A DNA stretch of 64,000 nucleotides, from the NCBI RefSeq assembly GCF_003334385.1, contig NZ_QOWN01000007.1. One strand, 5' to 3'. Below, in pieces: positions 38,649-38,940 of this stretch. The translations under genes and the position numbers were made by a program. Source of the DNA: Escherichia coli. Its GTDB lineage: Bacteria > Pseudomonadota > Gammaproteobacteria > Enterobacterales > Enterobacteriaceae. The notes under the pieces are model-generated. The model was not told where the DNA came from. It worked only from the letters and a program-made list of their open reading frames with translations, and did not search any database. Position 1 is the first letter of the stretch, and every line of letters begins with the position of its first letter.

Positions 38649-38940
38649 AATATGTTCCTTAATAAAATTTATTTTTGGTTGTTAAGAGTCTGTATCTCTT
38701 GGAAACAAATTTCTCACATCAAAAAAGTTGCCGCAATGTAAACACATTGTTTTATTGATTTAAAACAAATTAACCATTGCAATATAAATACAAAAAATAT
38801 TTAAGAGTATTAACTATTTATCGCATCTATCAATTAATGTAGATTTATGTAAATGGTATTGTTGATATCAATAAAAAAGCCGAAATCATTTATATAAATG
38901 ATTTCGGCTTTCTAAATGCAATTAAAATCAGGTTGCCAAA

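Follow-up and report, generated by a model that had tools for sequence, protein, structure and literature searches.

What does the AT-rich DNA just upstream of the fimbrial gene yehD do? In the 64,000-nucleotide stretch of the E. coli chromosome that we analyzed (the window), a short gap with very low GC content lies between yehE and yehD. The initial annotation read the entire gap as an H-NS-silenced cryptic chaperone-usher promoter, and because of a nonsense codon in the usher gene yehB, it described the operon as both silenced and decaying. We put the probability at about 85% that the gap is the terminator of yehE plus the control region of yehDCBA, with H-NS along the DNA of 24% GC, an FNR/ArcA module that is conserved, and CsrA at the SD sequence. 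In what follows, composition, the terminator, conservation, and the positions of the boxes were computed; the evidence for expression and for binding by H-NS, ArcA, FNR, and CsrA is from the literature; and the transcription start is inferred.

The gap and its neighbors are:

38649 to 38940, no strand assigned: yehE-yehD intergenic region, 292 bp, 24.3% GC; a catalogued promoter island that is bound by H-NS (from the literature)
38106 to 38648, minus strand: yehD, the major fimbrial subunit and the first gene of yehDCBA
38941 to 39222, minus strand: yehE, DUF2574/YehE family, with an N-terminus that, by eye, resembles a signal peptide; its stop codon is at 38941-38943

Composition of the gap and the end of yehE

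This part of the E. coli chromosome has the gene order rcnAB, yehA-B-C-D, yehE, apbC (mrp), metG. The gap is base-for-base identical to the corresponding intergenic region of K-12 MG1655, so published data for K-12 apply to it directly, and the names yehD and yehE in the initial annotation were right. A search of 5,426 complete E. coli genomes found the intergenic region, with identities of 80-100%, in 5,327-5,340 of them. There seemed to be a second copy of the region in each genome, but this is most simply explained by a perfect 36-nt palindrome (described below) that matches itself on the other strand: K-12-type alleles gave two "places" per genome, while alleles with an imperfect palindrome gave one.

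The GC content of the gap (A 115, T 106, G 35, C 36) compares to 50.3% for the window; in terms of AT, this is 75.7% vs. 49.7%. As the initial annotation had stated, these roughly 290 nucleotides are strongly AT-rich, and in fact they are the lowest-GC stretch of their length in the 64 kb. Just 0.05% of 292-bp stretches are equally low, all of these overlap the yehE-yehD locus, and the gap is the only place with 30% GC or less. The runs of A or T that were pointed out are present as well (8 runs of at least 4 nt), but mononucleotide shuffles of the gap have 7.3 ± 2.2 such runs, so they are a product of composition and not an extra feature. The yehA-yehE cluster as a whole is 41.5% GC, versus 50-52% in its flanks. 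None of the gap's small ORFs is conserved: for example, a 21-amino-acid ORF that begins with ATG lacks this ATG in other genera.

Two unremarkable functional elements, both part of the ancestral yeh fimbrial locus (stc in Salmonella), together make up the 292 bp. The region is already known: it is real, it was rightly located and in essence rightly interpreted, and genome-wide studies have catalogued it as an H-NS target. What is new here is a terminator that is supported by covariation, a core that is shared across genera and that matches published FNR and ArcA sites, and the finding that the nonsense codon is private. These refine the picture rather than change it.

The half of the gap that is closer to yehE contains:

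38912 to 38940, minus strand: yehE 3' UTR, 29 bp from the stop codon to the hairpin; 22% identity to other genera, not conserved
38870 to 38911, minus strand: yehE intrinsic terminator, about 42 bp; a perfect 36-nt palindrome (38876-38911) with an 18-bp stem, then U6 (38873-38878)
38801 to 38869, minus strand: AT-rich spacer, poorly conserved, with 47% identity across genera, which is near the floor for AT-rich DNA

The hairpin begins 29 nt past the stop codon of yehE, and its folding energy is -24.5 kcal/mol (z = -6.0). Across 18 sequences from four genera, 94.9% of cells in the 12-pair core stem can pair, as compared to 29-50% if the 3' partner is slid. The core stem has 45 double-sided changes, which are spread over 7 of the 12 pairs tested, and 0 of 500 shuffles reached its covariation score. 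Compensatory changes are found even among the alleles of E. coli (GCCG/CGGC becomes GCTG/CAGC, GCTT/AAGC, or GCCA/TGGC). A scan for consensus terminators missed this one. Given the hairpin with its U6, the folding energy, and the covariation, about 70 bp of the proposed promoter (the 42-bp terminator and the 29-bp 3' UTR) is the 3' end of yehE. This yehE-proximal segment would act as a 3' UTR with a Rho-independent terminator, which would make the yehE transcript separate from that of yehDCBA; judged by its sequence, yehE seems to form a transcription unit by itself.

Whereas the base of the terminator's stem co-varies freely, the top of the stem (38884-38903, ATCATT...AATGAT) keeps its sequence from genus to genus. 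This conservation of the top exceeds what a terminator needs. The adjacent spacer contains the sole match of the E. coli gap to a consensus-type promoter in the direction of yehD (TTGATA-16-AATACT, 38833-38806), as well as the two sites, at 38815 and 38826, that match the H-NS 10-mer best.

The position of yehE is itself conserved. In Escherichia, Salmonella, Citrobacter, and Superficieibacter (loci L008-L037 of the comparison described below), yehE lies directly 5' of the gene for the major subunit and has its own terminator, even in two loci that lack the synteny with apbC (L019 and L021). Because yehE is kept beside the major-subunit gene even where this synteny has been lost, a functional link between yehE and the fimbria is suggested. 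YehE and YehD have no similarity that BLASTP can detect (E = 1.3).

A conserved core upstream of yehD

For comparison, we fetched 30 loci that encode a relative of YehC from species representatives. In 25 of the 30 loci, from four genera, yehE is followed by a spacer of 272-319 bp with 24-32% GC and then by the major-subunit gene. The order apbC-yehE-yehD-yehC is found in 22 loci, with apbC directly upstream and with 93-99.7% identity of its protein.

Within the spacer, Escherichia, Salmonella, Citrobacter, and Superficieibacter share the 152 bp closest to yehD. When loci from outside of Escherichia are compared with E. coli, identity over the 170 bp that precede the ATG is 70-78%. In the same loci, the coding sequence of yehD is just 54-59% identical (except for L035, at 68.8%) and that of yehE is 58-65% identical. 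At the protein level, the YehD subunits of different genera (L013-L037) are only about 30-40% identical at the syntenic locus, as compared to about 96% for ApbC and about 75% for the promoter core. The divergence of YehD would fit with strong diversifying selection or with allelic replacement of the pilin.

The elements of the core are:

38649 to 38800, minus strand: conserved regulatory core, 152 bp, 75% identity to E. coli in 15 loci from outside of Escherichia
38755 to 38768, yehD strand: FNR-type box TTGTTttaaATCAA, TTGTT-TTAA-ATCAA, which matches TTGAT-N4-ATCAA at 9 of 10 positions
38725 to 38767, plus strand: published ArcA-P site AAGTTGCCGCAATGTAAACACATTGTTTTATTGATTTAAAACA, four direct repeats with 11 bp spacing; coordinates mapped by sequence
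38774 to 38794, minus strand: palindromic block, with the cross-genus consensus TTGCAAT-TAT-ATTGCAA
38708 to 38742, minus strand: candidate core promoter elements, with invariant TTTACA (38742-38737), TTGCGG (38736-38731), and extended -10-like TGTGAGAAATT (38718-38708)
38652 to 38663, minus strand: SD sequence AAGGAA inside a CsrA-type motif AUUAAGGAACAU, just 5' of the ATG of yehD (38648-38646)

The 44-bp block with the FNR and ArcA sites (38725-38768) is 88% identical across genera (range 84-95%). Identity is lower on both sides of it: 71% for 38769-38800, 72% for 38703-38724, and 71% for the leader and the SD sequence. Of 26 loci, 23 have the pattern TTG-N6-ATCAA at -117 to -121 relative to the ATG. 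By itself, the FNR box is not statistically decisive, because allowing one mismatch gives 7 hits to the FNR pattern across the window, versus 2.8 expected. (A perfect FNR consensus, TTGATTATCATCAA, lies at 37187-37200, within the 5' part of yehB.) A TTTACATTG block is present at -91 to -95 in all 26 loci. On the opposite strand, the consensus for the palindromic block contains a perfect TATAAT, which is TATAAA in E. coli.

Where does transcription of yehDCBA begin? In a scan with a position weight matrix, the best candidate promoter that was conserved in position was at 38708-38742, and it scored above 3 in 94% of 18 sequences. This candidate is TTGCGG-17-GAAATT preceded by TG; its -10 element is weak (3 of 6 positions, plus the TG). 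We tentatively place the start near 38700, downstream of TGTGAGAAATT, and this placement has a somewhat better chance of being wrong than right. With a start near 38700, the FNR box would lie near -61 and the ArcA repeats would extend over -24 to -67, which would fit with ArcA blocking the -35 region as well as the activator site. We did not find a mapped transcription start for yehD or stc in the literature on E. coli or Salmonella, so this promoter architecture is an inference.

At the other end of the core, AAGGAA is kept in all but three of 20 aligned sequences. There is no conserved RNA fold in the leader or the core (RNAalifold with 20 sequences gave -1.64 kcal/mol, with almost no covariation). 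In a scan against Rfam at permissive E-values, no family reached its threshold, and the best hits (0.05-0.5) were to eukaryotic families on the terminator's palindrome. Since there is neither a conserved fold nor an Rfam match, the constraint on the core lies on its primary sequence, as would be expected for DNA that is bound by proteins together with an SD/CsrA site. Overall, the pattern of conservation indicates that the core is under purifying selection.

Silencing, regulation, and alternative explanations

Studies of K-12 support the view that the region is a target of H-NS. Panyukov and Ozoline listed 2190229_357, between yehD(-) and yehE(-), among 78 promoter islands (position 2190229 of U00096.2, 357 bp; PMC3661553). 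With the sequence of the ArcA site as the anchor, this island maps to 38633-38989 in the window. The island was bound by H-NS in the ChIP data sets of Kahramanoglou (MG1655) and Oshima (W3110); in the Grainger data set, one of the three, a yehD/yehE site was not called (PMC3661553). Curran et al. placed yehDCBA in the H-NS regulon and reported a 3.6-fold increase in its expression when SlyA was overproduced (PMC5797941). The same article states, with a citation to Korea et al. 2010, that yehDCBA is repressed by H-NS. A later study that picked reporters with a robust response to SlyA did not include the yehD-gfp fusion in its choice. A study with IPOD-HR found that yehEDCBA lies in a static extended domain of protein occupancy (PMC12266141). 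Loss of the domain by itself does not induce yehDCBA (PMC12266141), so removal of H-NS may be necessary but not sufficient. The initial annotation had named two observations that would count against silencing, a lack of H-NS occupancy in ChIP data and constitutive expression in wild-type cells, and the published data report the opposite of both (PMC3661553, PMC5797941).

The initial annotation also suggested predicting H-NS motifs and DNA curvature, and neither singled out the region. For the H-NS 10-mer TCGATAAATT, there were 2 matches with at most 2 mismatches, versus 1.24 ± 1.14 in shuffled sequences (34% of shuffles reach 2). Curvature under the Bolshoy/Trifonov wedge model (our own implementation) was unexceptional, at the 68th-88th percentile of the window. 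These are weak negatives, because they depend on the consensus and on the wedge parameters that we used. As neither the motif counts nor the curvature rise above the background (of composition or of the window), it is AT content that marks the region and not a special motif or bend.

Other regulators act on the same DNA or on its transcript. Park et al. reported an ArcA ChIP-seq peak at yehD, which was called in one of two replicates (PMC3798270 supplements). The repeats of the ArcA-P site score 1.4, 7.5, 6.1, and 3.7 bits, and the yehD ArcA box scores 12.3 bits, which is below those authors' average of 15 bits. In an arcA mutant, yehDCBA was derepressed by 5.4-fold; for the start site, the entry is "no TSS" (all from PMC3798270 supplements). 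YehD was also a target of ArcA in genomic SELEX. Lemmens et al. predicted that yehD is a target of FNR and confirmed binding by FNR in vivo (PMC2690998). In gel shifts (EMSA), Gonyar et al. found that CsrA binds the 5' UTR of yehD in a GG-dependent manner, via a GGA motif beside the start codon (PMC11287998). In EHEC, they found that the yeh locus is transcribed as one unit from its native promoter and that ethanolamine plus B12 raises YehD (PMC11287998). Overproduction of BolA raises yehD and yehC.

Putting the computed features and these reports together, the 24% GC tract would be a preferred substrate for H-NS filaments, which would keep yehDCBA silent in laboratory culture. After setting aside the end of yehE, the remaining ~220 bp would be the control region of yehDCBA, with a sequence-specific module, shared across genera, in the 152 bp next to yehD. 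The FNR-type box overlaps the four-repeat ArcA-P operator, where ArcA would repress and FNR would bind; given this overlap, oxygen and redox state probably gate the promoter. In the leader, the GGA motif that overlaps the SD sequence would let CsrA act post-transcriptionally. Expression would be raised by counter-silencers or by certain conditions, such as overproduction of SlyA or BolA, or ethanolamine plus B12 in EHEC. In other words, the proposal of an H-NS-silenced cryptic chaperone-usher promoter stands on the literature for the identical K-12 sequence (PMC3661553, PMC5797941, PMC12266141), but the region is more than a target of silencing, as it contains a conserved core for FNR, ArcA, and CsrA, and in EHEC it is expressed from the native promoter.

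This places yeh among familiar systems. The cryptic set of K-12, as described by Korea and colleagues in 2010, reportedly includes yad, elf/ycb, sfm, yra, ybg, and yfc. Like yeh, the cryptic chaperone-usher promoters of K-12 have an AT-rich region 5' of the major-subunit gene, H-NS occupancy by ChIP, and poor expression in the laboratory; they are raised by overproduction of SlyA or BolA; and they are also listed as promoter islands. There is no difference in kind, as yeh is an actual member of the set and the sequence is identical. What we add for yeh is the FNR/ArcA core that is shared across genera and the yehE terminator that fills part of the AT-rich tract. Yeh is orthologous to Stc of Salmonella, and the same locus is found in Citrobacter (Wurpel et al. 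2013, PMC3559732). In Salmonella, stcABCD has the same order of apbC, yehE, spacer, major subunit, and chaperone, with a 278-bp spacer of 25-26% GC, and it shares the FNR-like box, the TTTACATTG block, and the context of the SD sequence with yeh. However, its major subunit has just ~34-36% protein identity to YehD, and the sequence between the terminator and the core cannot be aligned. The yeh region also resembles the anaerobic promoters that ArcA and FNR co-regulate, with their multi-repeat ArcA sites (Park et al. 2013): it has four direct repeats with 11-bp spacing, its ArcA site overlaps the presumed promoter or activator site, and it is derepressed in an arcA mutant. Unlike those promoters, yeh is a fimbrial locus that is covered by H-NS and not a carbon-oxidation gene, and its peak was found in one replicate.

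We considered several other explanations for the gap. It might be AT-rich DNA of foreign origin, gained by horizontal transfer, with H-NS coating it non-specifically and with no sequence-specific regulatory content. The low GC content of the yehA-yehE cluster relative to its flanks fits with this idea, compositional methods flag the yehD/yehE island as a genomic island or as foreign (columns A-D in PMC3661553), and composition alone explains the H-NS motif counts and the A-tracts. But the locus has the same position between apbC and metG in Escherichia, Salmonella, and Citrobacter, and it has retained low GC in all of them, so it is ancient; this synteny is not what recent horizontal acquisition would leave. 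Furthermore, neither flanking gene is as well conserved as the 152 bp next to yehD, in which invariant blocks keep a constant distance to the ATG, and specific regulators (ArcA, FNR, and CsrA) are reported to bind there. The pattern of conservation largely refutes this explanation, and we consider it improbable. Another idea, which is compatible with our preferred reading, is that RNA polymerase is held in unproductive complexes by many promoter-like sites, which overlap one another on both strands, and that this trapping, together with H-NS, silences yehD. The locus is one of the 78 listed islands (PMC3661553), and each strand has moderate candidates in our matrix scan (one of them is TTGCCG-17-TTTATT, plus strand, at 38751). 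On the other hand, a scan for consensus -35/-10 elements found 3 sites in 1.6 kb, versus 5.4 ± 2.5 in shuffled sequences (although islands are defined with another tool, PlatProm); only one candidate is conserved in position across genera; and the conservation indicates discrete sites for factors and not a diffuse density of promoters. As an explanation of the gap, unproductive trapping seems unlikely, yet we take it seriously.

Could the conserved sequence be a structured RNA leader instead, such as a riboswitch, a thermometer, or another RNA switch? The conserved core does reach the SD sequence, CsrA binds the leader (PMC11287998), and an entropy-based genome scan ranked 2190295-2190394, which is within the region, 21st among its E. 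coli candidates. But the absence of an Rfam family at threshold and the RNAalifold result (-1.64 kcal/mol for 20 sequences, with hardly any covariation) argue against a structured leader, the most conserved bases coincide with DNA-binding sites, and the part 5' of about -55 may not be transcribed; we think that a structured leader is very improbable. We would be quite surprised if the gap were a phase-variation switch, either with Dam/Lrp methylation of GATC as in Pap or with an invertible element as in fim. Phase variation is frequent in fimbrial operons, and the core is flanked by an imperfect inverted repeat of 15 nt (38670-38684 and 38785-38799, 80% complementary). However, this repeat is weak and AT-rich, GATC is absent from the E. 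coli region and from 22 of 25 other loci, there is no gene for a recombinase or a PapB/PapI-like protein at the locus, and the core has the same orientation in all alleles and genera.

Beyond our preferred reading of a terminator plus a control region, one extension seems doubtful to us but worth describing. The control region of ~150 bp in yeh and stc might be, instead of xenogeneic DNA under generic silencing, an ancient switch that has hardly changed since a time before the split of Escherichia, Salmonella, and Citrobacter, even as the pilin diverged to ~35% protein identity. Its further inputs might include the palindrome TTGCAAT-N3-ATTGCAA (38774-38794), to which some factor would bind, as well as the TGTGAGAAT block and the ATCATT...AATGAT top of the terminator. 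Coverage by H-NS would then have been selected within a circuit that is gated by anaerobiosis and gut cues.

The nonsense codon in yehB and the state of the operon

The initial annotation was correct that yehB has an amber codon:

36161 to 36163, minus strand: amber codon in yehB, TGG to TAG, at Trp392 of the 826-amino-acid usher

The amber appears to be private to this sequence, because the exact 41-mer centered on it is absent from all 5,426 complete genomes, and the best matches for 201 nt around it are 99.5% identical, which is one mismatch. We also compared the window, base by base, to one close genome, W5-6. There are 4 differences in 20,001 bases (27000-47000), and one of them is the amber; yehB is annotated as intact in W5-6. 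All four of these differences (at 36161-36163, 37342, 41593, and 43910) are G:C to A:T in the window. Four changes are too few for a signature of mutagenesis, yet they fit a very recent change. The amber is either recent and private, or else a sequencing error or a laboratory mutation. It would abolish assembly of the pilus in the source strain, and it says nothing about the locus in general.

The comparison to W5-6 touched on other parts of the window as well. It gave no information over the first 3.4 kb of the window, which is a recombinant segment. By its position in the near-identical W5-6, a TPP riboswitch lies 5' of thiM at about 31762-31858. And 3' of metG (about 42900-47000 in the window), the annotation of W5-6 includes two DUF4132 pseudogenes, one with an internal stop and the other a frameshift in yehI.

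More broadly, Wurpel et al. described Yeh as a core-associated fimbria that is intact in 92% of strains (PMC3559732). Because the amber is private, and because the operon is ancestral and conserved, including its control region, "silenced" holds but "decaying" does not, except trivially in the source strain.

Strain ES9 (L003) is a real example of the loss of the operon in one lineage. There, at 2754-4033, an IS5 element has taken the place of the whole control region, of yehD and yehC in full, and of yehB in its 5' part. The junction with IS5 is just past the terminator of yehE, and only 38908-40 of the gap, in window coordinates, is retained.

Since yeh is a textbook type of H-NS target, these findings have little wider import. 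They do bear on how such loci are read. Part of an AT-rich tract can be a terminator, as here. Before a nonsense codon in a single strain is taken to mean that an operon is degenerate, it should be compared with the population. And because AT-richness coexists with purifying selection on the sites for regulators, it would be wrong to take "silenced" to mean "junk" or "decaying." For the family, the footprint that is shared across genera is a concrete and testable map for the conditions that switch on the Yeh and Stc fimbriae.
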